NCBI GenBank assembly: GCA_038998335.1
Contig: JAVZHQ010000001.1
Location: forward strand, 594,165-658,164
Length of the DNA: 64,000 nt
From: Candidatus Aenigmatarchaeota archaeon
GTDB taxonomy: Archaea > Aenigmatarchaeota > Aenigmatarchaeia > CG10238-14 > SCSR01
Direction of reading: 5' to 3'
Shown here: piece by piece, positions 25,301 through 42,115 of the stretch
How the letters are laid out: each line of letters begins with the position of its first letter
Numbering within the stretch: the first letter of the stretch is position 1
Position numbers and translations under genes: made by a program
Notes under the pieces: generated by a model
What the model was told of the DNA's origin: nothing
What the model saw: the letters and a program-made list of their open reading frames with translations, nothing else
Database searches by the model: none

Positions 25301-28263
25301 TTACTGTTGCTTCCCATCCTTTGATTAATGTAAGTGAAGAAATAATTTATGGAATTGTGCCAGACGCTACTGAGCAAACCGTTGGTAACTTTACTATCCT
25401 TTCGATAGGAAATGATAAGTTGGAAAATGTAAGTTTTAGTTGTTATTCTGGAATAGTATGCAGTGATTTTTTTGTTGAGTTCATTCCAAGCAATGTTTCT
25501 AGTATTCCAGCTGGTTCTAATTATAGTGTGGCTATAAATGTTTCTGTACCTTTAGGATATGCTACTGGAACTTATACTGGAATTGTAAATGCTTCTTCTG
25601 GAAATGATGGGTTCGATAGTTTTGAAGTAGAAATTTTCGTTCCGATAAACAGAACTTGGACTATATTCCCAGAGTATTGTCAAAGAGCAGAAACTCCTGA
25701 GTATGGAGTAGCTTGCGAAGTAAACGTTTCGAACCTTGGAAACACTTACATAAACTTTAGTGTTTATCCTGAAGAAGGAAATTACACAAAAGTAAATGAA
25801 ACTTATTTCTCTATAGAAAGACAAAGCTGGCATGTTTTCTCTATAACTTATAATGTTACTGGAGTTCCCATGGGAATTTACAACTCTACTTTTATAATAG
25901 ACGCTATAGAAGAAGCAAACCCTGATAATAAAACTTTAACTGTTACGCTACTTCCTTACGTTGAGCCAATAATAAACATAAGCATAATTCCAAACACTAC
26001 TGAGCAATTCTCTCCCATAGAAATTTTTGCAAACATTACTGATAAATCAAACACAGGAATTGCCTGGGCAAGAGTTAACATTACTCAGCCTAATGCTACT
26101 CTACAAACTTTTGAAATGGAAAAAATTTATGAAAGCGGAAACCTTTCAACTTGGTATTTAAAGTATGAGGCTGAAAATACGAGCTTGCAAGGAAGGTATA
26201 ATATTACTGTTTTTGCAAGGGATAATGTTGGCAATACAGGAGAGAAAAACTCTTCTTTCATAATATTTGCAAAGTTAAGCATTTCAGTTTCAACGCTTTC
26301 AGAAAAGTATTACCAAGGTGATACTGGTTCAATATATTATTCTGTGAGAGATGCTAGCAATCAACCTTTAGCAAAAGTTAACGTAACTTTCAGGATAGAA
26401 GATTCAAACAAAAATCTAACGTTTAAAGCAAGCTATTTAACTAACGAAGACGGAATGATTTATCCTTTGCCAAGCTTTACTCTTCCTTCTGATTCTCCTT
26501 TAGGAGTTTATACTCTAATTTCAGACTCAGAATATGTTGATGAAGAATCAGGAACTGTTTCCAGAGTTCAAAGGAATAGTAGCTTCCAAGTTCTTTCAAG
26601 AACAGTCACTGTTACTGGTTTGTTTGCTGATGTAGAAACTGCTGTTGTTTGGTATCCTGAAAACATAATGAAGTTCGGGATTCTTGTTTATAATGGCGAA
26701 GGCAAACCTGTTGACCCTACTTCGATGAATTTAACAGTTTATGATCCTGCAGGCAACTTATACTTTTCTTCTTCTCTTTCACAAATGTCTAGACAAGCTA
26801 CAGGCTTTTACACTTACAGCTATGCCATGCCTGCTAATACTCCTAGCGGAATGTACTTAGCAGTCTTGAACGCAACTCAAAACGAGTTTCAAACAATGAA
26901 GCTTAAGGCTTTTAGAGTAGCAAGAGGTGGACCTTATGACTTGTGGCTAGAGCTTTTTGAACATGAAGTGATGCAAGGCGATTACTTAGATTTTGCAGTA
27001 ACTATTGAAAATAAAGGCGAAGTTTCACAAGATGTTTATCTTGAATGGTGGGTTTCTTCTGAGAATAAAACTTACTATTCAAGCTCTGGTTGGGTTTATA
27101 CCCCTGCTCATTCAAACCAAACAGTAACTCAGCAAGCTTATATTTTCACTTCACAGCCAGTTGGAACTTACGAGCTAAACGTAAAGATGACTTACGATAC
27201 TGTTCAACCTCCTTTAATAGTAAGCGAAACTTTTATCGTTACAGTTAAAGAGCTAATCCTGCCAAACATAACTTATCCTAACATAACTTATCCTATATAC
27301 ATTCCATCTTATCCTGTAGTAACTCCTGCTCCTGTAGCAATACCAACACCCACAGCAGTTTTGCCCGCAAGTATTTCTATAATAAACTATAATAGCAACA
27401 TAAGCCTAGTAAGGGGAACTAAAAAGACTGAAAGCGTTACTGTAAAAAACACAGGAATAGCTGATTTAGCAAACGTAACTGTTTTTCTTGTAGGAATTCC
27501 AACAACTTGGTTTACTGTTGTCCCAGACTTTGTTAGTGTTTTACCACCAGAAAACTCTTCAGTATTCTTAATCAACTTTGACGTTCCGAAAAATGCTTTG
27601 CCAGGAGAGTACAGAGTAATATTAACTGCAGTTTCTGGAGTGGTAAGCGATCAAAAAACAATAACCATAACAGTTTACGAATCCTTAGAAGAGCTGCTTA
27701 AGGCTGAGATAGAAAAGCTGAAGGAAGATGTAAAAGCTCTAGAAAGAGAAATAAGTATAGCAGAAAAAGAAGGAAAAAATGTTAGTAGCGTTTTGGTTTA
27801 TCTTGAAGAAATAAAAACACAAATAGATCAAGCAGAAATAAACCTTGCGAACAACAGAACAGAAGAAGCAATTGAAAATATAGCAACAGCAAAAGGTTTG
27901 ATAGAAAAAGCTAGAGAAATACTCCTTAGGTTAAAACCTCCTGTTGTTGAAGTTTTTGTCTTGCCTTACTGGCTCATCTTGCTAATAGCTGTAATAATAG
28001 CTTGCCTAATAATAGCGATAATCTTGATAAGAAAGAAAGGGATGCCGAGCATAAGGATTAAACCTGCTTTGCCTGCCTTGCCCAAAAAAGTTGAAAAAGT
28101 TGAGGCTAAGGAAGAACTTGTAAGAGAAAAAGAAAAGCTCTTGAGAACTCTAGAAATTCTTGAAAAGGAAAGAAAAGAAGGGATAATAAGCCTTGCTTCC
28201 TATACTGAAATGAAAAAGAGTATAGAGGAAAGACTACAAAAAATAGAGAAAAAGCTCAAGTAG
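22399..28263 (+). CDS. Second giant surface protein (1,954 aa): N-terminal anchor, DUF2341-like domain, repeated beta-sandwich modules, Pro-rich linker, coiled coil, C-terminal TM and cytoplasmic SHOCT-like tail
   Basis: N-terminal hydrophobic segment. WWNISWHYRVRLEVNTSSFERKNWPVEYKINF...IFFVYYD resembles DUF2341 (from memory). N-x-S/T is dense. Linker NITYPNITYPIYIPSYPVVTPAPVAIPTPTA. TM VFVLPYWLILLIAVIIACLIIAIILI then RKKG. Tail EGIISLASYTEMKKSIEERLQKIEKKL. Confidence 0.9.
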   Translation: MEKRIFYALLLALPLIFSILYFSGFLKLTGFFVGFGQPASEFKWWNISWHYRVRLEVNTSSFERKNWPVEYKINFTDLLPYGSFDENSTRVIEYSQEGELLGEVPSQFEKDDDFNSENNALGTLVFFLNGSNPANTKRIFFVYYDILENGPKEKREYPSSISYFWDGEELNVNASGLSYWIDTLRGENTSGLYRVRGIASQQDIWSIPDETKRTIEYSQYSNGSNNLSFDFKHNMSLKFSGPVRLVFEQKGYETLWNSEERTNEGFMIKRYYFYDFGLDEEKWIKIETIFKNLASYEIERNSTFAGALGLDASRAFGSSWQSAFGNTSYPGWWYASDFYSSFHTGIIHFNRSVENFFIQNSSSKDRIGIELNLTSIPPGSSISTIAILHFNDTSGDYTQVRELRNKIENPEIIIQFLPEAWYVEIIPSTNFSIYNRNESILIKANISLGDPYNLTKFINATLDMGTSSEADDQTIILYDDGSHEDEVANDKVFTNSFVLPNNAQVGIWTINFTAYSEDLKFLNSTLLSFNVTDVLNVSVVVLNKKPMVNSLVVANVYVKNYRQDSWIAGAEINCTYDSSEVLNKTDYNNGTYSVNFTAPSEEGVYYLFCNATKNGNFGNNSDSFTTEPGKTNLTITAEPSNPIVYNITLYRNQSFAILANATNYGNGTAYSTNISLELLNGWTANSTLEECGDIEKQTFCLKSFNITVPNATPPGDYYINVSVAWRNPDTTISINKTEVKVTVASNPLINISEEKVSGEAGDGIWNLIGNFTILSIGNDKLENISFSCYFGRVCSDFEVEFIPSNVSVIPAGSNYSVAINVSVPLGYPNGTYTGIVNVSSENDGFDSFEIEINIPPKTTVNVSTSIANYTAKNITQKDNETFSFETSATNIGKTSARSLNLSLELPTSWKANLTFESCNNLTKDESCLKSFSITVPNATPPGDYYINVTANWTNLDNSIGTNKTSLRVTVASHPLINVSEEIIYGIVPDATEQTVGNFTILSIGNDKLENVSFSCYSGIVCSDFFVEFIPSNVSSIPAGSNYSVAINVSVPLGYATGTYTGIVNASSGNDGFDSFEVEIFVPINRTWTIFPEYCQRAETPEYGVACEVNVSNLGNTYINFSVYPEEGNYTKVNETYFSIERQSWHVFSITYNVTGVPMGIYNSTFIIDAIEEANPDNKTLTVTLLPYVEPIINISIIPNTTEQFSPIEIFANITDKSNTGIAWARVNITQPNATLQTFEMEKIYESGNLSTWYLKYEAENTSLQGRYNITVFARDNVGNTGEKNSSFIIFAKLSISVSTLSEKYYQGDTGSIYYSVRDASNQPLAKVNVTFRIEDSNKNLTFKASYLTNEDGMIYPLPSFTLPSDSPLGVYTLISDSEYVDEESGTVSRVQRNSSFQVLSRTVTVTGLFADVETAVVWYPENIMKFGILVYNGEGKPVDPTSMNLTVYDPAGNLYFSSSLSQMSRQATGFYTYSYAMPANTPSGMYLAVLNATQNEFQTMKLKAFRVARGGPYDLWLELFEHEVMQGDYLDFAVTIENKGEVSQDVYLEWWVSSENKTYYSSSGWVYTPAHSNQTVTQQAYIFTSQPVGTYELNVKMTYDTVQPPLIVSETFIVTVKELILPNITYPNITYPIYIPSYPVVTPAPVAIPTPTAVLPASISIINYNSNISLVRGTKKTESVTVKNTGIADLANVTVFLVGIPTTWFTVVPDFVSVLPPENSSVFLINFDVPKNALPGEYRVILTAVSGVVSDQKTITITVYESLEELLKAEIEKLKEDVKALEREISIAEKEGKNVSSVLVYLEEIKTQIDQAEINLANNRTEEAIENIATAKGLIEKAREILLRLKPPVVEVFVLPYWLILLIAVIIACLIIAIILIRKKGMPSIRIKPALPALPKKVEKVEAKEELVREKEKLLRTLEILEKERKEGIISLASYTEMKKSIEERLQKIEKKLK
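24289..25650 (+). repeat. In-frame tandem duplication, 2 x 681 bp (227 aa) inside giant protein 2
   Basis: AAAATCTTTT..CATTACTGTTCCTAATGCTACGCCTCCTGGAGATTATTATATAAACGTTA occurs at 24501 and 25182 (offset 681). There are further long identical blocks (GGAAATGATAA., CCAGCTGGTTCTAATTATAGTGT., GGAATTGTAAATG.) separated by diverged stretches. Confidence 0.9.
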
Positions 28264-30550
28264 GTTCCTTTTCAACTCTTTCTATCAAATCATTAAAAGC
28301 TTGAATAGGGCTTTCTTTTCTCCTTCTTATTTCCATCTTTATGTCCGAAAGCAAGTTTTTAATCCTTTCTCTTTCTTTAACTCTTTTCTTTGTTTTTTTA
28401 AGTACAAAAGCAAGAGAAACACAAAAAACAGCAAAAATCGAAAGGTAGATTAAATCAGATTTTGTTAAAGGTAGCTCAGGTAAGCTGAAAGCAGCAGAAG
28501 GCATGCTTATGCTTTGAGTTGCATTTTCGCTTACGATCGTTAAACCAAAAACTTCTTCCTTAGAAAAATCTTCTGAAAAGATTTTGAAAGTTAGGCTTAA
28601 AGTTTCTTCTTTTGCATCGCTTGGAATAGTAAAAATAACTGGTAAGTCAAGCTTTTCTCCTACTTCAATTTTATCTACTCTTTCCTGAACCTTAAAGTAG
28701 CTTTCTGGTAAACCTGTTATGCTTATAGATAAGTTTAGAATTTGTGTTTGACCTGTGTTTATTAAAGAGAAAATTATTGTTCTGTTTTCTCCTTTTAAAA
28801 TTCTTATAGTGTCTGGAACTACCAAAGAAACTTCTCTTTTTTTAACAACTTGGAAAGCTAAGGATTTGTTTGAGCTTATGTAGGAACCTTTCTCAGCACT
28901 TATTAGAACTTTATAAGTTCCTTCACTTTCTGGAGCAAAAAACTCAAAGTAAAATATTCCAGAAGAATCAGAATAAGTTGAAACGTTAAGCCCAAAATCT
29001 GAGCTAGCTTTTATTAAAGCGTTTGGAACTAAGCTATTAGTTTCATCTTTAACCAAACCCCTAACCTTAACGATTTCTTTTAGTGTGTAAGAGCTTTTTT
29101 CAAAGGAAAAGTCTAAAACTAAGGATTTTCTTGTTCCTATCGCATAAGCTGATAAGCTTTTTGTTTCTATCGTAACTAAATTACTCACTGCATCTATAGT
29201 TGCAACTTCTTTTTTCCATTCTGAGTTGCAAAACTTGTTCGAAGGGTTAAAATCACTACACTTATAAACAACTAAATCTTTCTCGTTAGAAACTTTTCTT
29301 TCGTCATATCTCATTGAAATTTTAGCACTTGAATAAGGAAGCTTAAACTCAAAGACAAAAAGTCCTGCAACTCTTATTCCCTCAACATCACTATCAAAGA
29401 AATAATACTTTATAGGATCTTCAAAACTGCTGATAGTTACGTTATAAAGATAAAGAGTTGCCTGAGGAAAGCTTATTTGCAAATTATAATTCCCAGGAAC
29501 TAAAAAACCAGAATAAGAGCCTGAAGAATCGGTAACAAACTTTCTTTCTTGTCCATCTTTAAAAAACTTTATTTCAGTAGAGATTCCTTGATTGTTAAGG
29601 TCAGCAATTTTTCCAGAAGCTTGGAAAACATAAGCTATTGTTTTTTTCTGTGCTACAGAATAATTTTTATAGTTCATAGTAACTAATAAATCATACTCTC
29701 CCGGACTTAGCTCAGGAGCTTGAAATTCTAGTTTAAAAGCACTTCCTGAAGAGTATAAGTTTATCTTATCTTTTTCTATTTCTTCTGAACCTACTTTAAT
29801 CGATAAATAATCTTTCGTTAATAAAACTGGCTCACCTCTTTCTAAAGCAGAAATTGTTAGGCTGATCGTATCTCCTGCTTTAACTTCTTTCTTATCTAAG
29901 GATAAACTTAGCTCTAAGGGTTGTTTAACTTCAAAAGTTTTTCCAAGCTTTATTTGTTTGATTTCATAGCCTTGAACAGAAACATTAGCTAAAACTTCAA
30001 GGTTGTAGGTTCCTAAAGCTTTAGGAACCTCTAAAAGCAAGGTGTAGAAAGGAGAAGAATAGTACCAACCTTTCAAGTTTATTGGCTTGGTAGAAAAGCT
30101 AACTTGATTCTCGCTTAAAGGCGAACCATCTTTTTTAACCGAAAGAACAAGGGTTGCTATTTCATCTCCCAAATAACCCTGGCTTAAAGACTCTATTTTT
30201 GCCTCAAGATTAGAGACATAAAAATTGTAAAGGCTTGAGAATTCTCCAGAAGAATTTTTGCAAGTTAGGTTAAGAGTGTAGAGAGAGGGTTTCGGAGCTA
30301 TTTCAAAAAAATAACTTGGAATTTCTGCTTTGAAAAGATTTTCCTTTGTGAAAGTAAAATCCATTTTTACAGGTTCTTCTATTCTTCCTGAAACCTGCGA
30401 AGCATCACTACAGTTAACTAAAATTTCAATTTTTTCACATTCGTTATATAAACAAAAAACATTCTCTGGATTGAGCTTTACTTCAAAGGCATAAGCTTTG
30501 CTTAGAATAAAGAAGAAAGCTAAAGCTGAAATTAGGAAGAGCTTTTTCAT
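28256..30550 (-). CDS. Secreted surface protein with carboxypeptidase-regulatory-like beta-sandwich domains and C-terminal TM anchor
   Basis: The likely start MKKLFLISALAFFFILSKAYA (signal peptide) forms an ATGA overlap with the upstream MinD-like gene. CarboxypepD_reg-like segments include GKIADLNNQGISTEIKFFKDGQERKFVTDSSGSYSGFLVPGNYNL. C-terminal TM LIYLSIFAVFCVSLAFVL plus KKTKKR. Confidence 0.8.
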   Translation of the reverse strand: MKKLFLISALAFFFILSKAYAFEVKLNPENVFCLYNECEKIEILVNCSDASQVSGRIEEPVKMDFTFTKENLFKAEIPSYFFEIAPKPSLYTLNLTCKNSSGEFSSLYNFYVSNLEAKIESLSQGYLGDEIATLVLSVKKDGSPLSENQVSFSTKPINLKGWYYSSPFYTLLLEVPKALGTYNLEVLANVSVQGYEIKQIKLGKTFEVKQPLELSLSLDKKEVKAGDTISLTISALERGEPVLLTKDYLSIKVGSEEIEKDKINLYSSGSAFKLEFQAPELSPGEYDLLVTMNYKNYSVAQKKTIAYVFQASGKIADLNNQGISTEIKFFKDGQERKFVTDSSGSYSGFLVPGNYNLQISFPQATLYLYNVTISSFEDPIKYYFFDSDVEGIRVAGLFVFEFKLPYSSAKISMRYDERKVSNEKDLVVYKCSDFNPSNKFCNSEWKKEVATIDAVSNLVTIETKSLSAYAIGTRKSLVLDFSFEKSSYTLKEIVKVRGLVKDETNSLVPNALIKASSDFGLNVSTYSDSSGIFYFEFFAPESEGTYKVLISAEKGSYISSNKSLAFQVVKKREVSLVVPDTIRILKGENRTIIFSLINTGQTQILNLSISITGLPESYFKVQERVDKIEVGEKLDLPVIFTIPSDAKEETLSLTFKIFSEDFSKEEVFGLTIVSENATQSISMPSAAFSLPELPLTKSDLIYLSIFAVFCVSLAFVLKKTKKRVKERERIKNLLSDIKMEIRRRKESPIQAFNDLIERVEKEPT

Positions 30551-31494
30551 CTTCTTAACCCCCAAAAAATGCTTTTAACTCTTTCTGAAAACGAGGAAGA
30601 ATACCTAAAACCTAGAAGCTTTGCAGCTATTTTCTTGAATTCTAGTGAAGATTTAGAGTAAGGGTTAAGGAAAAAAGCTGGAAACTGCTTGTGAATGCTT
30701 TTCCTTATCGTTTTATCCTCTGGTACAACTCCAAGAACAGGCAATTCACAAGCGCTTTCGATTTCCTTATAGTTTAGCTGCTCCTTCTCTTTTCTATACC
30801 GATTGACTATTATTCCTAAAGGTTTAGCACCAACTTCCTTACAAATCTCTATTGTTTTTATGGCATCTATAACAGAAGGAAGCTCGGGCAAAGTTACTAC
30901 TATCACTTCCTTACAAGCTTTTATTACTTCAACGCTATTCGAATCCAAACCAGGAGGAGAATCCACTAATACAATAGAATTTTCAAAAAAGTTTGAGCTC
31001 AAGACTTTTGAAAGATTGGAAATTTTTGTCTCTTCAAGGGAAAGAGAGGCAGGAATTATTCTTAAACCTGAAGGATGGATGTAAACTGCGCTGAGTATAT
31101 CTGCATTATCGTTTAAAACATCGTTAAGCGTTGTAGAGAAATAGTACATGCCAAGTTGCAAACCTAAGCCAGACATTTTTACGTCAGAGTCCAAAGCTAT
31201 AACATCTTTTCCAAAACTCATTAGGGCGCAAGCCAAGTTTATTGTAACTACAGTTTTGCCTACTCCTCCTTTTCCAGAAATTATCCCTATTGCTTTTGAG
31301 CTTTTTTCTTGCTTTAGAGTGTAAACGTTTGATTTCCCAACAACAAAAAGGTTGAGCTTACCTTGCTGCCTTAAGCTTTCTAGGTAGCCTGAAGCTTTGT
31401 CTTTGCTTATTCCTAGAGAATTTGCTACTTGCGTTACTGACATCAAACTTGAACTTAATAAAGATAGAATTCTTCTTTCGATATTCTCTTCCAC
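30547..31494 (-). CDS. Winged-HTH fused to MinD/ParA-type P-loop ATPase
   Basis: N-terminal LSLLSSSLMSVTQVANSLGISKDKASGYLESLRQQGKL (wHTH-like). Then the deviant Walker A GIISGKGGVGKTVVTINLA and Walker B-like IVLVDSPPG. Confidence 0.85.
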   Translation of the reverse strand: MEENIERRILSLLSSSLMSVTQVANSLGISKDKASGYLESLRQQGKLNLFVVGKSNVYTLKQEKSSKAIGIISGKGGVGKTVVTINLACALMSFGKDVIALDSDVKMSGLGLQLGMYYFSTTLNDVLNDNADILSAVYIHPSGLRIIPASLSLEETKISNLSKVLSSNFFENSIVLVDSPPGLDSNSVEVIKACKEVIVVTLPELPSVIDAIKTIEICKEVGAKPLGIIVNRYRKEKEQLNYKEIESACELPVLGVVPEDKTIRKSIHKQFPAFFLNPYSKSSLEFKKIAAKLLGFRYSSSFSERVKSIFWGLRR

Positions 31495-31568
31495 AATTAT
31501 AATTTGTTTTTTTGCAATATTATTTCTTTCACATGTCAGCCATATAGCAAGAAAAAATCTTCATATAG

Positions 31569-32306
31569 CTAAAGGTTAAGGACAACGCTAAGCTTGTCTG
31601 TTAAGAGGTGAAGATACTTAAGCAAACCTTCCTCCTTTTCTAAATAAAATGAGTTTGAGTAATAGTAGTTTCCATCCTCGCTAACTATTTCCAATTTAAT
31701 CTCATGTGGGAACCAAACTTGGTAGCTAAAGGGAATAACAACTTCTGTGTTCTTGTTTTCCTTGATTTCAAGCTTCTTTTGCTCAAAAACCCATCCTGGT
31801 AAGAAGTTGCTAGGAATAACGAAAACTTTTAGCGATTTGTTAGCTTTAACTTCAAACCTTATGTAATTATCGTAAACCCTGAAGTTCTTTACTTGAAAAA
31901 TGTTTTCAGGTTTTTTCTGGTTTTCCAAGGTTATGTTTAAATATTTTTCAAGCATTTCGTTCGCGTAGTAGACCCTTAACCTTAAAGTTAGATTTTCTGT
32001 TTTTGGAGAATAGTAAAATAGTTCAAAATTTTTCGCTTCACCTGGCATTAAGGTTTCCTCTTTGCTCCAGCCAGTAAAAAGAATTTCACTAGAGTTTAAA
32101 ACGTCAAGCCTGGCTCTTGCTTTGTAGGCAACGCTTCCTGTGTTAAAAAATTCTAGGTTGAGCTTTAAAATTCCGTCCTTAGCTTCAGAAAAAATTGCGG
32201 TAAAATTTCCTTTGAGTTCAGGCTTAATCCCAACTTTTAAAATAGATGCTGAGCTTAGGAAGAAAAATAAAAGAAAAACGACTAAGAGTAAAATAAGCGA
32301 TTTCAT
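31569..32306 (-). CDS. Secreted beta-sandwich protein with FxNTGSV (CARDB-like) domain
   Basis: Signal peptide MKSLILLLVVFLLFFFLSSAS. LNLEFFNTGSVAYKARARLDV...PGEAKNFELFYY is paralogous to domains in ORFs 32800..33768 and 34803..36062. Confidence 0.7.
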   Translation of the reverse strand: MKSLILLLVVFLLFFFLSSASILKVGIKPELKGNFTAIFSEAKDGILKLNLEFFNTGSVAYKARARLDVLNSSEILFTGWSKEETLMPGEAKNFELFYYSPKTENLTLRLRVYYANEMLEKYLNITLENQKKPENIFQVKNFRVYDNYIRFEVKANKSLKVFVIPSNFLPGWVFEQKKLEIKENKNTEVVIPFSYQVWFPHEIKLEIVSEDGNYYYSNSFYLEKEEGLLKYLHLLTDKLSVVLNL

Positions 32307-32309
32307 TTT

Positions 32310-32810
32310 TCACACCAAGCTTTCAAGAAAACTTAAGTTTGGCTTCCTAACTATAACATCTATCTGCCCTGAATAATTCCCTATTCTTGAAACTTTTGAA
32401 GTGTTAAGAAAAACTACTATCGTTTCAGACTGGTTTGAGTAGAGAATAAAATTGTCTTTGCTAAAGCTAACAAAAGGTTTGATCTCGCCGTAAACTTTAA
32501 AATAAACTCTTACTCTACTTTTTTCAAAGTTTGAGATAACAACTTGCCTTCTTCCGTAACCTGATAAAGGAATTATCCCAAAGTTAAGGTTCCATGGATC
32601 TGCAACTAAACCTACTGTTATGTTTTTTTCCTCAAAAGGAATTATCTCTACTCTTAAAGGATAGCTTGTTACTTCAAAAGTGAAGAAAAAGTTTGAAGAT
32701 TTTTGAAAGCTCATGTTTTCTACTAAGCTTTTTGGTTCAGAGTACCCTGGAAATAAAGCCATAAGCACTGCTAGAAAAATTAAAAACAAGATAAAAATTT
32801 TACTCTTCAT
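32310..32810 (-). CDS. Small secreted Ig/PapD-like beta-sandwich protein
   Basis: Signal peptide MKSKIFILFLIFLAVLMALF. NLNFGIIPLSGYGRRQVVISNFEKSRVRVYFKVYG...FILYSNQSETIVVFLNTSKVSRIGNYSGQIDVIV follows the alternating pattern typical of ASH/MSP/PapD-like sandwiches (fold guess only). Confidence 0.6.
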   Translation of the reverse strand: MKSKIFILFLIFLAVLMALFPGYSEPKSLVENMSFQKSSNFFFTFEVTSYPLRVEIIPFEEKNITVGLVADPWNLNFGIIPLSGYGRRQVVISNFEKSRVRVYFKVYGEIKPFVSFSKDNFILYSNQSETIVVFLNTSKVSRIGNYSGQIDVIVRKPNLSFLESLV

Positions 32811-33768
32811 GCCAAAACCTGTAAGCAATTATTATGATAATAATTATTGCTGCAATAAGTATTAAAAGCCAGAATGGAAACTCGAAAGGTTTTTCAGGTT
32901 TAACTAAAGCTAAGGTAGGAAGAATTTTTATCGTTGAGTTTTTCTCCACGCTACCTGAAAGATAATTAACTCTTGCGTAAATTTTGTATTCTCCTTCTTT
33001 TATTCCATCTAAAGGTAAAAAAGCAGCCAAAACCTTTTTCTCCTTAGGCTTAACCTTTTCTTGGGAAGAAGATAAAGTTTTAACTAAGTTTCCTTGAGAA
33101 TCAAAAATTTTTATTTCTTCTGCTCTTGCTGAAATCGTTACTGTTCCTGTGTTGAGAAAATGTATTAATAGCTGCAAGCTATTTCCTGAGTAGCTTCCTG
33201 TTGTTATGTCTAAAATTTTGCCTTCTCTTATAGCAGTGCCAGGAATTTTAAAAAGGATAATAACAGGAGTTATGGTTGCTATTCCTATTCCTACTTGACC
33301 AAAAGAAGATTGTGGCAAGCTAGGTTTAGGAGCTATTTCAACCAGATGATAGCCAGGTTCTGCGTTTTCTGGAACGTTTAGCAAAAAGTTTATTTCTCTC
33401 CAACCTTTTATTGCTCCGCCAAAAGTTGGTAGTTCGCCGGAAGGCTTAAGCTCAACAGGATTTGAAAAAGTTTGAACCCATGAAGAAGTTTGTTCTTCAG
33501 AATAGTTAAAAATATAGCTTTGATAACTTGGTGTGTTAAAAAAATCTATTAAAGGTTGGGAAGGTTGAAGGTAAACTACTATGGTTTCGTCTGAGGGAGA
33601 AACTATAAAAAAACTTACTGGTTTTGATGAGCCTTTTTGAAGCTCTCCTAAATCGATAAAAGAAGGTGAAACTCCTACTGAAAAATCTTTTGCGTAAGCT
33701 GAAGATAAAAGGATTAGGCAAAAGATTGAAACCATAAGTTTTTTCATATTATTAATTTGAAGTTTCAA
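32800..33768 (-). CDS. Secreted two-domain beta-sandwich protein with C-terminal TM anchor
   Basis: Signal peptide MKKLMVSIFCLILLSSAYA. Second domain LLIHFLNTGTVTISARAEEIKIFD...KEGEYKIYARVNY. C-terminus PFEFPFWLLILIAAIIIIIIIAYRFWHEE. Confidence 0.75.
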   Translation of the reverse strand: MKLQINNMKKLMVSIFCLILLSSAYAKDFSVGVSPSFIDLGELQKGSSKPVSFFIVSPSDETIVVYLQPSQPLIDFFNTPSYQSYIFNYSEEQTSSWVQTFSNPVELKPSGELPTFGGAIKGWREINFLLNVPENAEPGYHLVEIAPKPSLPQSSFGQVGIGIATITPVIILFKIPGTAIREGKILDITTGSYSGNSLQLLIHFLNTGTVTISARAEEIKIFDSQGNLVKTLSSSQEKVKPKEKKVLAAFLPLDGIKEGEYKIYARVNYLSGSVEKNSTIKILPTLALVKPEKPFEFPFWLLILIAAIIIIIIIAYRFWHEE

Positions 33769-33842
33769 AATTTTATTCTTAAAAAATTATCTTTAATATT
33801 TAACAATAATGTTTAAATATCAAGGTAAACAAAATTTTATAT

Positions 33843-34718
33843 ATGAAGTTTGGAAAAATAGCTTTTTTGATTGGTTTAATAAGCATGCTAGGAGCAGCTT
33901 TTTTAGTAAGCTTAACAAAACCAGCTTTTTCAGCAACCTCAAACCAAACAAACGTTACTGTAGAAGTAAAAGGAGTTTGCCAGATAACAGTTGCACCAAC
34001 AAACCATACCTGGTTTAGCGTTACTCCAGGCTCAGAAGGAGGAGTAAAAACATTAAACATAAGAAATAGTGGTTCAAAAAACCTTACAAATATTTATGGC
34101 TATGTTGACACACTCACAGTAGAAACCACTAACCCAATTCCTACAGGTGACCCTTCAAGATATGCTTCCGGTGGAGTTCTTGTTTTAAACGCAGGAAGTG
34201 GCTTTTATTATGTAGGAAGGTTGGAGTGGAATGTGAGTAAACCAGCAGGAGCAGGTAATACTAATTGTGATGCAACATGGTCAACTTGGGGTTGGTACAG
34301 AAACGCTACTGTAGGAAATTATCTTTGGTGCATGGTTAACGGAAGCGACGGAACTTGTAATGCAAGTAATGCAAAAATCTATATAGAATCTGATGTTGAC
34401 ACAGGTGACCCAAGTACAAGAGACCCAGATAAAGGTGGCAACGTTGAAAGCCAAGCTCCAGATTGGGCAATATTTGGTTTTAGTGATGGACCTTTGGCTG
34501 GGCACTGTGTAGCCTTATACAAAGACTGCACAAAAATATACATATATAAATATGATCCAACCTTTGGCGACTGCGATATGGAAAGTTTCATAAGAACAGA
34601 AGCCTTGACACCAAGCTCAGAGTTTTCAGTTAGCTTAGACGTTTGGGTACCAAAGGGAATTCCAGCAGGATGGTTAGCTTCTAATTGGCTAACTATTGAA
34701 GGAAGCTGCCCACCATAA
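33843..34718 (+). CDS. Secreted Gly/Trp/Cys/Asp-rich 291-aa protein, compositionally distinct from its neighbours
   Basis: Signal peptide MKFGKIAFLIGLISMLGAAFLVSLTKPAFSA. The mature part has 8 Cys and many W/G/D with few K/E. Transcribed divergently from the 33768 operon. Confidence 0.75.
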   Translation: MKFGKIAFLIGLISMLGAAFLVSLTKPAFSATSNQTNVTVEVKGVCQITVAPTNHTWFSVTPGSEGGVKTLNIRNSGSKNLTNIYGYVDTLTVETTNPIPTGDPSRYASGGVLVLNAGSGFYYVGRLEWNVSKPAGAGNTNCDATWSTWGWYRNATVGNYLWCMVNGSDGTCNASNAKIYIESDVDTGDPSTRDPDKGGNVESQAPDWAIFGFSDGPLAGHCVALYKDCTKIYIYKYDPTFGDCDMESFIRTEALTPSSEFSVSLDVWVPKGIPAGWLASNWLTIEGSCPP

Positions 34719-34802: not shown

Positions 34803-36062
34803 ATGAAAAAGTTTCTTTACCTCTTTATCATCTCAATTGTAGCAATTCTTATTTTTAACTTCATTTCTAACTTTTTTTCTTTAAGAATTACAGGCTTTGT
34901 TGGAGCTAACTTTTCCGTTAACATTTCAGAAGTTTTGAAAGGAGAGCTTTTGATTAGCTATAAAGAGGAGTTAAACTGGGGTGAGTTTCAAAACATAACA
35001 GTAGATTTTTTAAACACAGGAAGCGTTCCTTTTCAAGAAAAAATTGAAGTTAGAATATATTACAACTACGGAGGAAAGCTTCAACCTTTAGCCTATTATT
35101 ATGATTCCATAGTAACTTTAAAGCCAGGTGAAAGAAGAAGTTATAGAGTTAACTATCTTCCGCCTACCATAGGAACCTATTATATAAAAGTAAGGGTTCC
35201 TTATGACGGAAAAACTGTAGAAACATGGAAAGCTTTTATAGTAATTTATATTCCTCCTCCACCTCCTGTTCAAATAATCACCCTGCCTCCTGAAGTTCCT
35301 GCTCCACCTGTTGAAGTAGTTGAAACTGGAAAGCCTGGAATGGAAATAGATTACCCAGAAAAAATAACTATAGCTCAAGGAGAGTCGAAACTTTTTAGTG
35401 TTATAGTTAAAAATACAGGACAAGTTTCTTTAAGGAACATGAGGCTAGCTATTTCCCTTCCTAGCTCTTTTAGCATAGAGGTGAACCCGAAAGAAATCTT
35501 TAAAGTTATACCGAACGAAACAGCAGTTTTTCTTGTCTATTTAACAATTCCGAACCAAACTTTACCTGGAATCTATCCTTTGGATTTTGAAGTGATAACC
35601 GACAAGATAAAAGAAGGGAGAAGAATAAGCGTAGAAGTTGTTTCTGGTTTACCAGATATAGAAAAAGAAGTAAAGGAAACGATCCAATACTACGAGTACT
35701 TAATCTCAGAAATCCAGAATCAAATAGATGCTGCTTTTTTGAAAGGAATTGACGTAAGCAAAGCCCAAGAAAGCTTGGATAAAGCAAAAATAGCCTTAGA
35801 AGAAGCAAAAACCTATTATAACCTAGGAAAATACTTAGACGCTAAGAAAAAGCTAGATGAAGTAAAAGATCACTTACAGGAAACAGTTTTCCAGCTTTCC
35901 TTAGCTTTAATTCCTGTTTATTATCCTGCTTTTCCTTTCTTACCTCTTATTCTTCTTCTGATAATAATCCTAGCAATAATTCTAGCACTGATTCTTTCTA
36001 GAAGAAGAAAGAAAAAGGAAGAGCTTAAGAGACCAAAGCTTTTGAGAGGAATAGAAACTTAA
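34803..36062 (+). CDS. Membrane-anchored surface protein: FxNTGSV domain, poly-Pro linker, CARDB-like domain, coiled coil, C-terminal TM
   Basis: ATG at 34803 (the track start 34779 is TTG). ITVDFLNTGSVPFQEKIEVRIYY. IYIPPPPPVQIITLPPEVPAPPVE. SVIVKNTGQVSLRNMRLAISLP...LPGIYPLDFEVITD. YYPAFPFLPLILLLIIILAIILALILSRRRKKK. Confidence 0.8.
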   Translation: MKKFLYLFIISIVAILIFNFISNFFSLRITGFVGANFSVNISEVLKGELLISYKEELNWGEFQNITVDFLNTGSVPFQEKIEVRIYYNYGGKLQPLAYYYDSIVTLKPGERRSYRVNYLPPTIGTYYIKVRVPYDGKTVETWKAFIVIYIPPPPPVQIITLPPEVPAPPVEVVETGKPGMEIDYPEKITIAQGESKLFSVIVKNTGQVSLRNMRLAISLPSSFSIEVNPKEIFKVIPNETAVFLVYLTIPNQTLPGIYPLDFEVITDKIKEGRRISVEVVSGLPDIEKEVKETIQYYEYLISEIQNQIDAAFLKGIDVSKAQESLDKAKIALEEAKTYYNLGKYLDAKKKLDEVKDHLQETVFQLSLALIPVYYPAFPFLPLILLLIIILAIILALILSRRRKKKEELKRPKLLRGIET

Positions 36063-36085
36063 GTTAAAAAATCAATAAAAAAATT

Positions 36086-36340: not shown

Positions 36341-36365
36341 ATAGTTTACTGTTCATCAGTATTTC

Positions 36366-36842
36366 ATGAAATTTAGCAACCATTCAGTAGTAACACTTCA
36401 AATACTCTTAAAAATAATTATAGTTAACATAATAGTCTTGCTATCACTTGTTTCTGTGCATGAGTTTGGCCATTTAGTTATGGGCTTACTCACAGGCTGC
36501 TCAAGCGCAAGAATTGTTCTTTTTGACACAAGTAGAGAAGGCCCTTACACTGAGCTTTTTTGCAATTCTTCTAACCCTATAACTTATTCAGGAGGAATTT
36601 TATTTAGCTTAGCTTTTTCTTCGCTTTTCCTTTTTTTAAAAGAAGCTGAAGACAAAAAGCTTTTTTTTGTAGCTGTTGGTTTATCCTTAATGCTTTCTGG
36701 CCTTGACATAATAGCTTTAACTTCTACCTACTTTTCCTTTTATATTACGACAATTTTTGGTTTTTGTCTTACAATCTTTGGAGAGTACAACATAACTTTA
36801 AGCTACGCGAAAAAAGAAGAGCTTTTAAAGTACTACCTTTGA
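36366..36842 (+). CDS. Small polytopic membrane protein with HExxH motif (M50/site-2-protease-like)
   Basis: VSVHEFGHLVMGLLTGC lies within or next to the first TM segment. About 4 further hydrophobic segments follow. Confidence 0.5.
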   Translation: MKFSNHSVVTLQILLKIIIVNIIVLLSLVSVHEFGHLVMGLLTGCSSARIVLFDTSREGPYTELFCNSSNPITYSGGILFSLAFSSLFLFLKEAEDKKLFFVAVGLSLMLSGLDIIALTSTYFSFYITTIFGFCLTIFGEYNITLSYAKKEELLKYYL

Positions 36843-36887
36843 AACTTAAGATTATTAATTTAGAATACAATTTTATATTGTGAGAAA

Positions 36888-37649
36888 TTGGCAAGGGTAA
36901 TAGGGATAATTTCTGGAAAAGGAGGAGTTGGAAAAACAACTTTAACCGCAAACTTAGGAGCTTCTTTAGCACATTTTTTCAAAAAAAACGTTACTGTTAT
37001 AGATTGCAACATAACAACTTCCCACTTAAGCCTTTACTTGGGAATTCACTTTTGTCCAACTAGCTTGAACAAAGTTTTAAGGAATGAAATCTCCATAGAA
37101 GAAGCGCTTTACAAGCATTACAGCGGAGCTAACATTGTTCCTGCCTCTTTATCCTGGAAAGATTTGGAGGGCGTGGATGTAATTCAGATTAAAGATAGTA
37201 TAAAAAAGCTTTTTGACAAAACTGATATAATATTGCTCGATGCTGCTCCTGGCCTAGGAAGGGAAGCTTTGGCTGCTATAAAAGCTTGTGATGAAGTTAT
37301 TTTTGTTACCATGCCTTACGTTCCTTGCGTTATGGACATTATAAGATGCTTAGAAGTTGTAAACGAAATTGGAGTTAAGCCCTTAGGAATTGTTTTGAAC
37401 ATGGTTGGGAATGAAAGGTATGAGATGAAGAAAAAGGAAATAGAGCAGCTTACTGGTTTGCCAGTGATTGCTTCAATTCCTTCAGACAAAAATGTTTTGA
37501 AAAGCTTAGCTTTAAGGACTCCTGTTGTTCTTTTTAACAAAAAATCAAAAGCAAGTAGAGAAATAATAAAACTTGCTGGCAATTTGATAGGAGAAAATTA
37601 TAGAGAAGAAGGATTTTTCTCAAGAATTTTCAAAAAGCTTAGGTTATAA
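36888..37649 (+). CDS. MinD/ParA-family P-loop ATPase (archaeal MinD-like)
   Basis: TTG start. IGIISGKGGVGKTTLTANLGASLA (deviant Walker A). IILLDAAPGLG (Walker B). Similar along its length to the ATPase part of ORF 30547..31494. Confidence 0.9.
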   Translation: MARVIGIISGKGGVGKTTLTANLGASLAHFFKKNVTVIDCNITTSHLSLYLGIHFCPTSLNKVLRNEISIEEALYKHYSGANIVPASLSWKDLEGVDVIQIKDSIKKLFDKTDIILLDAAPGLGREALAAIKACDEVIFVTMPYVPCVMDIIRCLEVVNEIGVKPLGIVLNMVGNERYEMKKKEIEQLTGLPVIASIPSDKNVLKSLALRTPVVLFNKKSKASREIIKLAGNLIGENYREEGFFSRIFKKLRL

Positions 37650-38273
37650 GAATTTGTAAATTAGGAAAGAGATTAATAAAATTAAAGCTATTGCTGAAGC
37701 TAAAATTGTAAATCTTAAGTCAAAGCTTGGTAAAGAGATTCTTGAACTTATTTTTTCTTCTTCACTTACTTGCTTGCTCTTTTCTTTTTGTTCAACTTCC
37801 CTTTTTTCTTGCTCTGAAGAAAAATGTTCAAGAATTTTTATCTTGAAAACAAAAGTTTTTTCTTGAGCAACTTTAATTCCTGAATCTAAGCTTTCTGCTC
37901 TTGTTTTTATTCTTATTTCATTCTCTCCTTTTGCAGAATCTAAGGCTTTGATCAAAACTTTTACAGGAAATGCTTTAACATCACCTACCGAAAGCTTAAC
38001 GTATTCTCCTTCCTCATAAGGAGGACCAATTTTAGAAGCGTTTAACAAAAATTCTTTTGGCTCAACTATTACAACAAAACTTTCTTGTGAAAAAGGTTCA
38101 AGAGTAACTAAACAAGGAGAGTTTTCAAGATTCCAGAAAAGAAGAGTAAATTCTTTCGTTTCTCCTTTTACCATTTCTGCATAATTGCCTTTTTGCAAGC
38201 TTCCAAAGCTTAAAGCTTTAGCAGAAGGGATAAACAATAAAAAAATTATTGCAATCAAAATTTTCTCTTTCAT
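37644..38273 (-). CDS. Secreted beta-sandwich protein with KE-rich linker and C-terminal TM anchor
   Basis: Signal peptide MKEKILIAIIFLLFIPSAKA. GETKEFTLLFWNLENSPCLVTLEP...VKAFPVKVLIKAL. SLPSFDLRFTILASAIALILLISFLIYKFL. Confidence 0.7.
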   Translation of the reverse strand: MKEKILIAIIFLLFIPSAKALSFGSLQKGNYAEMVKGETKEFTLLFWNLENSPCLVTLEPFSQESFVVIVEPKEFLLNASKIGPPYEEGEYVKLSVGDVKAFPVKVLIKALDSAKGENEIRIKTRAESLDSGIKVAQEKTFVFKIKILEHFSSEQEKREVEQKEKSKQVSEEEKISSRISLPSFDLRFTILASAIALILLISFLIYKFL

Positions 38274-38274
38274 T

Positions 38275-41034: not shown

Positions 41035-41038
41035 TTCT

Positions 41039-42115
41039 TTAAGTCGGACATGGTGTAGCAGAATAATAACAACAACTAGTTGAAGAGGCAGGAGCTGGCC
41101 GGCAAGTGTTTGAGCTTAAGTAAGAGTTTGGATAAGGAGAAGGACAGCTTACTGTACAAGATGTTAAAATGTAGCAATTTTCTGTTGTACAAAGGAGCCC
41201 CCAATTACTATAGTCGCAAGAGCAAGTCCCTCCAACATTGCAAGCTAAAGTATAACCAGAGGCATCTTCCCAGTAAAATTCTGAATTTTTCTCTTCACCA
41301 GGAGCAACGCTTCCTATGTGCTGCTTTAAAGTTATTGCTGAATTGTACTGCCCTTCGTCACTAACGTTCAACTCATAATCATAATCGCTTAGCCAATCAA
41401 GCCTTATCCTCCATAAAAGCAAATCCTTATAATTTCTTTTGTGAACTTCATACTTCTTTTCTTTTAAATAAGTTGAGTTGAAAATAGCGTTCAAACCATG
41501 CAAATCATAAACTTCAACTTCATTCAAAGTTGAATTTATAACGAAAGCATTATCTTCATAAGAATTGTTTATTTTTATCTCAGTAGTTTTCCACCAAAAC
41601 CAAAGGTCATCGATAGCTTTTGAACCAGTATTATAGCCATAAAAGCTTACGCTAAGCTTTCTATCGTTATCTTTAAGGAAATACCTAACCTTAAAGTAAA
41701 ACTTATAACCTCCTGGCGCATTATACTCCTTTGAAGTACCGTTAAGTTCAACCCATGTTGCCTCTTCGTTTGTTGCGTTAGTCCATGTTAATTCAAAAGA
41801 ATCTGTGCAAATTCCTTCGAATTTAAAATTCCCTACAGTTGCGTTTATGCAAATCCAATTTCTGCTCCACCAGTTTGGCAAGTCTTGAGTTATCTGAAGG
41901 CCTGAAGTTTTATTTACCCAGTAAACCTCTTGATCGTTCCAAATTTTAAAGGTTTGTGTTGTTGAATTGTACTCAAGAAAAGTAGAATTTCTTGGTTTAC
42001 ATTGAGCTTTAACCAAGGTAAAATTGCTTTCAACTAATTTATCTTGTTTTATTTGGATTAAACTCAAAGCTAAAATAAAAACTAGTGCAAGTATTATTAT
42101 TTTTAAAATTTTCAT
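41039..42115 (-). CDS. Secreted 358-aa protein with Cys-rich C-terminal module
   Basis: Signal/anchor MKILKIIILALVFILALSLIQI. C-terminus ACNVGGTCSCDYSNWGLLCTTENCYILTSCTVSCPSPYPNSYLSSNTCRPAPASSTSCCYYSATPCPT. Its stop lies 4 nt upstream of the 919-aa gene start. Confidence 0.75.
   Translation of the reverse strand: MKILKIIILALVFILALSLIQIKQDKLVESNFTLVKAQCKPRNSTFLEYNSTTQTFKIWNDQEVYWVNKTSGLQITQDLPNWWSRNWICINATVGNFKFEGICTDSFELTWTNATNEEATWVELNGTSKEYNAPGGYKFYFKVRYFLKDNDRKLSVSFYGYNTGSKAIDDLWFWWKTTEIKINNSYEDNAFVINSTLNEVEVYDLHGLNAIFNSTYLKEKKYEVHKRNYKDLLLWRIRLDWLSDYDYELNVSDEGQYNSAITLKQHIGSVAPGEEKNSEFYWEDASGYTLACNVGGTCSCDYSNWGLLCTTENCYILTSCTVSCPSPYPNSYLSSNTCRPAPASSTSCCYYSATPCPT

Follow-up and report, generated by a model that had tools for sequence, protein, structure and literature searches.

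A cluster of genes for paralogous, membrane-anchored beta-sandwich proteins, unanchored secreted proteins and two MinD-type ATPases in the genome of a Candidatus Aenigmatarchaeota archaeon raises the question of what such a gene set builds at the cell surface. The cluster lies in a stretch of 64,000 nucleotides (nt) of contig JAVZHQ010000001.1, referred to here as the window. Coordinates are positions in this window, proteins are named by their lengths in amino acids (aa; 322, 172, 245, 769, 291 and so on), and labels such as L086 denote the loci of relatives that were compared with it. An original prediction, made from the letters of the sequence, proposed a candidate surface-structure assembly system which, if it makes an appendage or coat, would do so by an undescribed route. 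The combination of paralogous anchored proteins, unanchored secreted proteins and two archaeal-type MinDs proved to be a real, conserved and unannotated cluster, and no description of this locus was found in the literature. The reading that we favor, with a probability of about 0.45, is a two-module cell-surface complex in which anchored proteins hold secreted cargo and which is organized by membrane-binding MinDs. The function assigned to the locus is derived from computation only.

Gene content and membrane topology

All open reading frames (ORFs) named in the original prediction are present in the sequence and agree with an independent gene call (NCBI GCA_044343295.1, JAVZMN010000001.1), with start codons alone differing (322 becomes 315, 172 becomes 166, 769 becomes 764, 427 becomes 419, 212 becomes 209 and 919 becomes 916 aa). 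The 74-nt gap described between the genes for 245 and for a fusion of a winged helix-turn-helix (wHTH) with MinD corresponds, from the coordinates, to 31495–31568, and the sequence shows the stop codon of MinD and the start codon of 769 sharing an ATGA. The gene set of 28256–42115 was retained; the locus was drawn too narrowly, however, as the convergent 1954-aa gene at 22399–28263 also belongs to it by synteny. The features are listed below, with the length in the independent call in parentheses where it differs.

22399–28263, plus strand: 1954-aa giant glycoprotein, convergent with the 769 gene, an associated envelope component
28256–30550, minus strand: 769 (764)-aa type I membrane protein with a signal peptide, beta-sandwiches, a C-terminal transmembrane helix and a 45-aa cytoplasmic tail
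30547–31494, minus strand: wHTH–MinD fusion, the MinD of module A, with a winged helix at residues 1–65 and an archaeal MinD at residues 66–315
31569–32306, minus strand: 245-aa secreted beta-sandwich protein, its N-terminal domain homologous to domain 2 of 322 and to the N-terminus of 427
32310–32810, minus strand: 172 (166)-aa secreted protein, a borderline relative of 212 and of domain 1 of 322
32800–33747, minus strand: 322 (315)-aa anchored protein, a tandem of immunoglobulin-like (Ig-like) domains, with a signal peptide, two beta-sandwich domains and a C-terminal transmembrane helix
33748–33842, no strand: divergent promoter region that separates 322 from 291 and contains opposed TATA-like boxes (TTTAAACATTATTGTTAAATATTAAAG)
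33843–34718, plus strand: 291-aa unanchored secreted beta-sandwich protein, rich in Cys, Trp, Asn and Thr
34803–36062, plus strand: 427 (419)-aa stalk protein with two beta-sandwiches (one of them NEW3), a Pro-rich linker, a coiled coil and a C-terminal transmembrane helix
36086–36340, plus strand: 84-aa basic cytoplasmic protein with a Lys-rich tail, on the same strand as the module B MinD and upstream of it
36366–36842, plus strand: 158-aa polytopic membrane protein that contains HEFGH and is a putative M50B/DUF3267-type zinc metalloprotease
36888–37649, plus strand: 253-aa archaeal MinD, the MinD of module B
37644–38273, minus strand: 212 (209)-aa anchored protein with a signal peptide, a beta-sandwich, an acidic linker and a C-terminal transmembrane helix
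38275–41025, minus strand: 919 (916)-aa unanchored Cys-rich secreted protein with a variable N-terminus and a conserved C-terminal domain
41039–42115, minus strand: 358-aa Cys/Trp-rich secreted protein at the head of the 919 operon, a species-specific accessory

A hydropathy scan located a signal peptide or N-terminal hydrophobic segment in 322, 172 and 245, for which signal peptides had been proposed, and in 291, 427 (a signal or anchor segment), 212, 919, 358, 769 and 1954 as well. The same scan placed a C-terminal transmembrane anchor in 322, 769, 427, 212 and 1954, with charged cytoplasmic tails of 45–70 aa in 769 and 1954, and found a signal peptide alone in 291, 919 and 358, which are unanchored. 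These three proteins also resemble each other in composition, with lysine plus glutamate (K+E) of 6–13%, tryptophan of 3–4% and cysteine of 2.7–3.9%, and are rich in Gly, Thr, Ser and Asn. The odd composition previously remarked on for 291 is evident from its GC content (0.40 vs. about 0.33 in its neighbors), its K+E content (7.9% vs. 12–24%) and its 3.4% tryptophan and 2.7% cysteine, and is shared by 919 and 358. Dense Cys-rich stretches occur at the N-terminus of 919 (YYCCLGSGGSCTCSSTGSCTYTCNPGW) and at the C-terminus of 358 (ACNVGGTCSCDYSNWGLLCTTENCYILTSCTVSCPSPYP).

The ectodomain of 769 consists of two CarboxypepD_reg-like domains and other beta-sandwich domains, and 769 has a membrane-proximal domain in common with 1954. 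The latter contains a signal peptide, NEW3/MG2 Ig-like domains and 99 NxS/T sequons, and ends with a membrane-proximal NEW3–coiled-coil stalk, a transmembrane helix and a cytoplasmic coiled-coil tail of about 70 aa; this stalk and the one in 427 are homologous (BLAST E 6e-10). The unanchored 919 contains 43 NxS/T sequons. The BNR propeller ascribed to it is apparent as four canonical SxDxGxTW Asp-boxes in the sequence, with a BNR_2 match that is sub-threshold (28.5 vs. 31.4 bits).

Pfam and NCBIfam searches over all locus proteins returned only generic Ig-like domains, MinD and M50B; 322, 172, 245, 291, 212, 358 and 84 had no match in either, and none of the secreted proteins matched a known enzyme family. 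The 322 family comprises 264 protein clusters, all hypothetical, and every named relative among the homologues retrieved for 291 is likewise called hypothetical. A separate HMMER scan of 1.84 billion representative proteins gave 516 members of the 291 family at E <= 1e-3. The locus is flanked by two-component, PAS and SBP genes on one side and by housekeeping genes on the other. The original prediction saw no type IV pilin signal peptides, prepilin peptidase, secretion ATPase or archaeosortase, and no parts of type IV pili, sortase or archaeosortase were detected in the locus or its flanks: class III signal peptides, prepilin peptidase, the PilB/FlaI ATPase and the PilC/FlaJ platform were found in neither, and the N-termini of the locus proteins, read directly from the sequences, lack the [KR][GA] class III motif. 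A type IV pilus or archaellum and a sortase or archaeosortase system were therefore rejected. No signal peptidase gene was found in the locus or beside it.

Conservation and two-module organization

The 322-family alignment was scanned against one genome per GTDB species, and 80 loci were retrieved from the 115 genomes with relatives. Gene content was determined by iterated hidden Markov model searches of six-frame ORFs, and the counts refer to loci with enough flanking sequence. The gene set is syntenic over at least 80 species-level genomes, which exceeds chance. Most of the 115 species-representative genomes are labelled Aenigmatarchaeota, and a few are labelled Nanohalarchaeota, Nanoarchaeota, Altiarchaeales, Bathyarchaeota or Anstonellales. 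The 172 gene is directly downstream of 322 in 64 of 66 loci and the 245 gene within 2.5 kb downstream in 57 of 59; MinD and 769 are found downstream in 40/49 and 41/49 loci respectively, and a 291 homologue lies within 2.5 kb upstream in 33/47. Of the 17 loci that are fully flanked, 7 have a giant of the 1954 type within 10 kb, and a homologue with 56% sequence identity to 1954 is syntenic in L002 and L003. Conservation of 919 is confined to its C-terminal 265 or so residues (652–918), a predicted docking domain that defines the 919C family and whose homologues range from 278 to 1876 aa in length; in relatives, the 212 gene always follows directly after the 919C-family gene. For the 358 protein, the only homologue detected was in L006, where the 322 homologue shares 96% identity with that of the window.

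Gene-neighborhood analysis seeded with the wHTH–MinD fusion retrieved three contigs, on which the MinD is 55–66% identical, with the same gene order: a divergent 291-like gene is followed by 322-172-245-MinD-769 and then by a convergent gene, either for a 1955-aa giant or for another MinD. In an all-against-all BLAST comparison, 13 of 14 families recurred on these three contigs, with 358 not found. Homologues of the locus genes are tightly linked; scattered and unlinked homologues, named at the outset as an outcome that would count against the prediction, were not observed. In many genomes the second gene set follows directly on the same strand: in L014, L021, L042, L050, L068 and L069, the order is 322-172-245-769-MinD-919C-212-427-84-MinD. 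Thus, the convergent arrangement in the window is a local inversion.

A further locus, L086 (GCA_013138805.1, WTCA01000030.1, 613–10885), was reached from a distant relative of 291, from which the search led back to the same cluster. It contains all eight structural families in a single operon (322-172-245-769-919C-212-427-291). At least this one genome thus has no MinD in the locus; the structural genes are the core of the system, with MinDs frequent and not obligatory in cis. A T2SSE/PIN/KH ATPase gene is located 1 kb downstream of the L086 operon.

Profile–profile comparisons with hhalign, for which signal peptides and transmembrane helices were trimmed, related several of the anchored and small secreted proteins to each other by domain, as follows.

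322 domain 1 and the 212 ectodomain: 97.1%, E 8e-11
322 domain 2 and the 245 N-terminal domain: 95.9%
322 domain 2 and the 427 N-terminal domain: 97.0%
245 and 427: 100%
172 and 212: 77%, borderline
172 and 322 domain 1: 58%, borderline

The F-(L/F)-N-T-G-(S/T)-V domain that was originally noticed in 245, 322 and 427 therefore corresponds to real homology; the FxNTG motif itself is generic for CARDB/NEW3-type domains, but the domains here are nonetheless truly homologous. By the same profiles, 212 is most simply described as a single-domain paralogue of 322 domain 1. A pilin-type domain shared by 291 and the C-terminus of 919 was also considered, and was rejected as no homology between them was detectable.

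Given this domain paralogy and the recurring sets of cargo, anchor and MinD genes, the locus reads as two modules. Module A consists of 291 together with 322, 172, 245, MinD and 769, and module B of 919C together with 212, 427, 84, in some loci 158, and MinD. Each module combines unanchored putative cargo, anchored Ig-like paralogues and a MinD of its own.

MinD ATPases and the genes coupled to them

The two ATPases, introduced by the original prediction as MinD/ParA, are both archaeal MinDs (TIGR01969, minD_arch), with scores above the cut-off of 201.75 bits (222.9 for wHTH–MinD and 223.1 for the module B MinD). Both, and nearly all of their homologues at related loci, have the deviant Walker A motif SGKGGVGKT. 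Among solved structures, those nearest to them are 1hyq (A. fulgidus MinD-1, E 5e-41) and the Pyrococcus structures 1ion and 1g3q (E about 1e-35), followed by FleN/FlhG. The module B MinD is 67% identical to the module B MinD of L003 and 41% identical to the module A MinD. Both proteins end with basic amphipathic peptides (FSERVKSIFWGLRR in the module A MinD and GFFSRIFKKLRL in the module B MinD), which are conserved in the locus MinDs and typical of membrane-targeting sequences, so that membrane binding is predicted from the C-termini. Grouping with partition ParA next to parB or parS, named at the outset as an outcome that would count against an envelope role, was not observed: with the ParA_partition model NF041546, whose cut-off is 180 bits, the scores were 47.7 and 55.4, and ParB, parS, MinC and MinE were not detected in the locus. 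A partition ParA/ParB system was rejected for these reasons.

The genes for MinD and 769 are coupled in either order. A stop/start overlap or abutment, often ATGA, was found in 35 gene pairs with the order MinD>769 and in 17 pairs with the order 769>MinD (52 coupled pairs in both orders). In the 769>MinD loci L014, L015, L020, L021, L024, L025, L029, L042, L050, L068 and L069, the MinD clusters by identity with the module B type rather than with the MinDs that precede 769. Average-linkage clustering did not cleanly separate the MinDs of modules A and B, and different MinD paralogues may have come to occupy the module A position on more than one occasion. The cytoplasmic tail of 769 (peptide KERERIKNLLSDIKMEIRRRK) carries a conserved motif, IKNLLSDIKMEI. 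In the tails of 769 homologues, an amphipathic motif of approximately (I/V)KN(L/F)LxDIKxEI is kept even where the 322 homologue is only 28–30% identical to that of the window. We propose 769 as a MinD-binding partner.

A second candidate partner is the 84-aa protein, whose family (16 loci) has an almost invariant N-terminus, MGLFGP(F/Y)xYK, and no match in Pfam or the PDB. MinD is located within 700 bp of the homologues of 84 in 12 of the 16 cases, and the 158 gene intervenes in the window and in L009. The 84-aa protein is proposed to act as a MinD partner or adaptor, and may be comparable to MinE or McdB. The intervening 158-aa protein, first recognized as an HExxH membrane protein, indeed contains HEFGH, and its match to Peptidase_M50B (PF13398) is borderline (26.6 bits vs. 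a cut-off of 26). Its L002 homologue is called DUF3267, and the gene is linked to the locus in 13 loci.

The wHTH fusion had been singled out as an arrangement not described before. Residues 1–65 of the fusion form an ArsR/DUF7343-like winged helix, and the P-loop is correspondingly found at residue 73–93 or so in the window's subclade vs. about 9–14 elsewhere. The fusion is restricted to that subclade and a plain MinD is present elsewhere; it was accordingly rejected as a key novelty. The N-terminal HTH alone recalls type Ia ParA. The 95-bp divergent region at 33748–33842 is a candidate operator for the fused wHTH. It is almost invariant in L006–L009 and L011, whose proteins are 74–96% identical, a pattern compatible with a predicted autoregulation. 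A direct repeat, CAAAATTTTAT, occurs twice within it and probably represents AT-rich chance or promoter elements. In other relatives, the position immediately upstream of the 322 homologue is occupied by a small gene of DNA-binding type in L002 (46 aa, AbrB/MazE-like, 7549–7689) and L005 (68 aa, HTH_24, weak match, 6794–7000), and by an unannotated 109-aa ORF in L003 (7281–7610). This suggests that a dedicated regulator recurs by 322 even where the MinD is HTH-fused.

The anchor–cargo reading and its rivals

The AlphaFold2 (AF2) model of 322, obtained from a 92-sequence alignment with a predicted local distance difference test (pLDDT) score of 92.1, shows a signal helix, beta-sandwich domains at residues 28–175 and 183–282, and a transmembrane helix at 299–320. 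The best Foldseek match in the PDB is the Enterococcus faecium WxLIP bound to a long WxL protein (9i25_C, E 1.3e-11), and a second WxLIP structure (9i1y) matches with an E-value of 4e-10; the two WxLIP structures are at the top of 1892 matches. The superposition with 9i25_C is moderate and not close, with TM-scores of 0.46/0.55 and a root-mean-square deviation (rmsd) of 6.5 Å over 283 columns. The chaperone-usher chaperones CfaA, FimC, DraB and Caf1M are matched at E-values of about 1e-8 (TMt 0.38–0.45). In domain 1 of the model, the loop at about 147–160 contains P147, P149 and G160, which are invariant or nearly so, has a pLDDT of 62, and is a candidate element that would become ordered upon binding.

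WxLIP proteins have a DUF916–DUF3324–transmembrane architecture and have been proposed to retain secreted WxL proteins at the surface of Firmicutes by insertion of a beta-hairpin (PMC10599100). A typical WxL cluster encodes a single WxLIP and two WxL proteins, one small and the other large, the latter having its WxL domain at the C-terminus and a variable N-terminus (PMC10599100, PMC9772566). The Aenigmatarchaeota locus resembles these WxL/Csc clusters in that 322 has the WxLIP architecture (signal peptide, two Ig-like domains and a C-terminal transmembrane helix), and in its combination of an anchor with a small secreted protein and a large secreted protein that has a conserved C-terminal domain. 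The parallel of 322, 291 and 919 with WxL clusters is striking, as a parallel of fold and layout only. Unlike in WxL clusters, the small and large partners (291 and 919) are not homologous, DUF916/DUF3324 sequence membership is lacking, and no locus protein matched the WxL Pfam domain; the host is an archaeon, and WxL clusters in turn lack MinD, stalk proteins of the 769/1954/427 kind and a second paralogous module. The NQIDKxxxYFDLK motif of WxLIP is absent from the 322 sequence, and the 322-family profile found nothing meaningful among PDB sequences. Membership in the true WxL clusters was rejected on the basis of sequence and of the absence of any domain common to both secreted partners. 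Archaea lack bacterial peptidoglycan.

In favor of the anchor–cargo reading are the split of cargo and anchors by topology and composition, the paralogous modules, the fold of 322 and the synteny; the coupling of MinD and 769 in both orders, the motif in the 769 tail, and the pairing of 84 with MinD and its joint absence with MinD in L086; the conservation of the C-terminal domain of 919 alone, next to a variable N-terminus; and the class and features of the MinDs and the conserved block of the divergent promoter. The genes present, their synteny and paralogy, the topology and folds of their products, the class of the MinDs, the start/stop coupling and the 769 tail motif are observed or computed, whereas each physical interaction, the positioning role and the autoregulation in the model are inferred.

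In this model, the families of 291 and 919, together with the species-specific 358, would be Sec-exported cargo that forms an exposed layer and is held at the membrane by the paralogous, C-terminally anchored Ig-like proteins. In module A, 291 is the proposed outer cargo or subunit, and 322, the proposed anchor or receptor for its family, would serve it together with 172 and 245. In module B, 212 is the proposed anchor for the 919 C-terminal domain, which it would serve together with the SlaB-like stalk 427, and the variable N-terminus of 919 (here the BNR propeller) would be directed outward as a ligand- or host-binding head. Binding of cargo would probably proceed by beta-strand augmentation, as in WxLIP–WxL and chaperone–pilin pairs. 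The larger type I proteins 769 and 1954 would be further anchored members, their charged cytoplasmic tails being candidate points of contact with the ATPases. The module A MinD, translationally coupled to 769, would bind the 769 tail motif, and the module B MinD would be paired with the 84-aa basic protein. As MinD4, FlhG, TadZ and BcsQ do for their own cargos, the MinDs would determine the site or the density of the complex, which might be placed at a pole or where a host is contacted. The wHTH would have been gained by the module A MinD in the lineage of the window, and may autoregulate the divergent promoter in the manner of type Ia ParA.

Several observations weigh against this reading. 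Ig tandems are common, and those of RbmA and HYDIN-like proteins match 322 at similar E-values; with no match to DUF916/DUF3324 at E <= 1 among 92 members of the 322 family, the likeness of the 322 model to WxLIP would be one of fold only. The 291 family and the 919 C-terminal domain are unrelated to the anchored paralogues and to each other (0.1–1.9% in pairwise hhalign comparisons). Neither a MinD nor an 84-aa gene is present in the L086 locus, and as MinD is absent from 9 of 49 loci as well, it may be dispensable or act in trans. The near-universal presence of the locus in the phylum fits a housekeeping envelope layer no less than an adhesin complex. The roles given to 172, 245, 158 and 84 are guesses.

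The kinship of the locus is with MinD-associated envelope structures and with surface complexes made of an anchor and a secreted partner, and no described surface system has this gene set. Machines positioned by MinD/ParA ATPases include the archaellum and chemosensory arrays (Haloferax MinD4), flagella (FlhG/FleN), Tad pili (TadZ/CpaE) and cellulose synthase (BcsQ), and the papers on archaeal MinDs deal with Haloferax MinD2 and MinD4 and with motility and shape cargos. As in these systems, a deviant-Walker MinD is encoded together with putative envelope cargo. In contrast to them, the cargo would be Ig-like surface proteins rather than a motor, pilus or synthase, the coupling is to the tail of a type I protein, two MinD paralogues are present per locus, one of them wHTH-fused, and the positioning role here is a proposed one.

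The main rivals to this reading are that the exposed proteins make up a fiber or a lattice-like coat, and we consider either unlikely, to about the same degree. In the first case, 291 would be a TasA/AbpA/CanA-like subunit that polymerizes by donating its conserved N-terminal strand to its neighbor, the tandem 291 proteins would be major and minor subunits, 322 an anchored chaperone or basal anchor and 919 a tip or matrix adhesin, and the MinDs would place the assembly site. The AF2 model of 291 (77 sequences, pLDDT 91.3) is all-beta, with residues 23–40 unstructured and of low confidence. Its best fold match in the PDB is the TasA fiber (8aur_A, E 5e-3, probability 0.69), and the Pyrodictium CanA cannula fiber and FaeG follow at ranks 4 and 37. 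The TM-scores to TasA are only 0.22–0.26, however, at an rmsd of 17 Å, and no PDB match was found at E <= 1e-3. A Foldseek search of viral structures returned nothing significant. At the sequence level, Peptidase_M73 (camelysin/TasA) matches weakly in 2 of 77 members of the 291 family (best E 0.013, below curated thresholds) but not in the 291 protein of the window, and the family profile found nothing meaningful among PDB sequences, where it did not recover TasA.

The segment of 291 that follows the signal peptide (residues 37–45, NVTVEVKGV) conforms to a conserved consensus, TVxVxVxxV, with alternating hydrophobic residues. It is unpacked in the monomer model, where it has no secondary structure and reduced confidence, and it is retained by all tandem 291 paralogues, of which relatives have one to four copies. 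Both properties are in favor of a donor strand, but the N-terminal pattern is also generic for CARDB-like sandwiches. The matches of 322 to chaperone-usher chaperones at about 1e-8 are in the same direction, and 291 resembles the subunits of donor-strand fibers (TasA, AbpA, TafA, Saci_0406 and CanA) as a Sec-secreted beta-sandwich with an N-terminal strand-like extension and tandem paralogues. Archaeal donor-strand fibers (threads, archaeal bundling pili, tafi and cannulae) are an established class, but they assemble without a chaperone and without MinD, and the descriptions consulted contain no MinD or WxLIP-like component. In addition, the dedicated signal peptidase I of such systems (SipW/TafD type) has no counterpart among the locus proteins, which include no S24/S26 peptidase. 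The pointers from 291 to a donor-strand fiber are thus several, weak and none of them decisive, and the original claim of an appendage or coat built by an undescribed route was overstated; it is better put as a conjecture. One protein, P0440 (2737 aa), matches positions 49–84 of the 291 profile in 20 separate stretches; the N-terminal strand-PG-NxGS block of this family thus occurs, tandemly repeated, within a giant protein too.

A bolder version would combine the fiber with the anchors, as an archaeal organelle not seen before in which a donor-strand polymer of 291, assembled with the help of 322, carries a 919 adhesin docked by paralogous anchors and is sited by MinD through the 769 tail. 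It would be the device by which Aenigmatarchaeota attach to their hosts, unrelated to type IV, sortase or chaperone-usher pili or to known surface layers (S-layers); we regard this reading as a whole as improbable. There is a modest chance of a truly new organelle. With respect to chaperone-usher pili, 322 resembles by fold the two-Ig-domain chaperones named above. Unlike them, 322 is membrane-anchored, no usher was found in the locus, and there is no outer membrane; the 322 family has no match to the PapD_N/C Pfam domains.

The alternative of an S-layer or envelope cluster, which we likewise hold to be unlikely, would have 919, 291 and 1954 form a canopy on SlaB-like stalks (427 and the 1954 C-terminus) and the short anchors 322 and 212, with the MinDs linking the place where new lattice is inserted to a position in the cell, for instance midcell. 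SlaB of Sulfolobales has a signal peptide, beta-sandwich domains, a coiled coil and a C-terminal transmembrane helix, and 427 and the 1954 C-terminus resemble it, the comparison being one of architecture rather than of sequence. The gene for a large unanchored glycoprotein followed by that for an anchored stalk mimics the slaA–slaB order. An S-layer would also suit the apparently phylum-wide distribution with conserved order in 115 species-representative genomes, the N-glycosylation sequons (99 in 1954 and 43 in 919) and the low charge and Thr/Asn/Gly-rich composition of the unanchored proteins. However, an S-layer normally needs one or two genes, not 12, and SlaA/SlaB involve far fewer genes and no MinD. 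The N-terminal two thirds of 919 are unconserved, in homologues of 278–1876 aa, which is a better fit to a variable adhesin than to a lattice former, and the copy number of 291 varies from one to four. No homology to known S-layer proteins was found in Pfam, NCBIfam or PDB profile searches.

That the MinDs act in cell division or DNA segregation and are merely located among surface genes is very improbable: archaeal genomes do carry several MinD paralogues whose role is not established (TIGR01969 description and literature), the L086 structural genes are without MinD, and an HTH resembling the N-terminal HTH of type Ia ParA would fit DNA binding, but MinD lies inside the operon in 40/49 loci, 52 pairs with 769 are start/stop-coupled in both orders, each module is accompanied by a distinct MinD paralogue of its own, and ParB, parS, MinC and MinE were not detected, with the ParA model far below its cut-off.

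The secretion complex predicted by Makarova et al. in 2015 (arCOG01314/DUF4350, MoxR, vWA and Ig-like arCOG02884/02487) is similar in being a conserved archaeal neighborhood of Ig-like membrane and secreted proteins with a P-loop ATPase. It differs by its MoxR AAA+ ATPase, vWA and DUF4350 components, none of which was found among the locus proteins, and was rejected as having a different gene set.

Elsewhere in the window, in 218–15004 on the plus strand, a 4361-aa ORF combines Ig-like surface domains (Big_1 and NEW3) with a C-terminal HerA/DUF87 P-loop ATPase domain at residues 4021–4107 or so, an unusual fusion of a giant surface protein with a cytoplasmic HerA-like ATPase. Directly after its stop, at 13304, begins a 566-aa Lys/Glu-rich coiled-coil protein with weak SMC/Rad50-like matches. 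An archaeal signal recognition particle RNA is located at 46587–46870. Rfam matches to tRNAs at 56664–56750 and 59683–59738 (minus strand) were missed by ARAGORN; the first is 87 nt long and barely over threshold (30.9 bits), the second spans only model positions 9–63, and both may represent archaeal tRNAs that contain introns or are split.

The Aenigmatarchaeota are a phylum of tiny symbiotic archaea within DPANN, whose members presumably live attached to other cells, and no published account was found of what mediates such contact in Aenigmatarchaeota. A phylum-wide, syntenic and unannotated surface locus with variable outward heads is a concrete candidate for an envelope or attachment apparatus. 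To our knowledge, most archaeal MinD paralogues have no known cargo; the two MinDs described here are genetically tied to membrane proteins, through start/stop coupling, the tail motif and the 84-aa partner, and thus provide testable MinD–cargo pairs. Finally, the WxLIP/PapD-like fold of 322 suggests an archaeal counterpart of strand-augmentation anchoring, which for WxLIP has been described only in Firmicutes.

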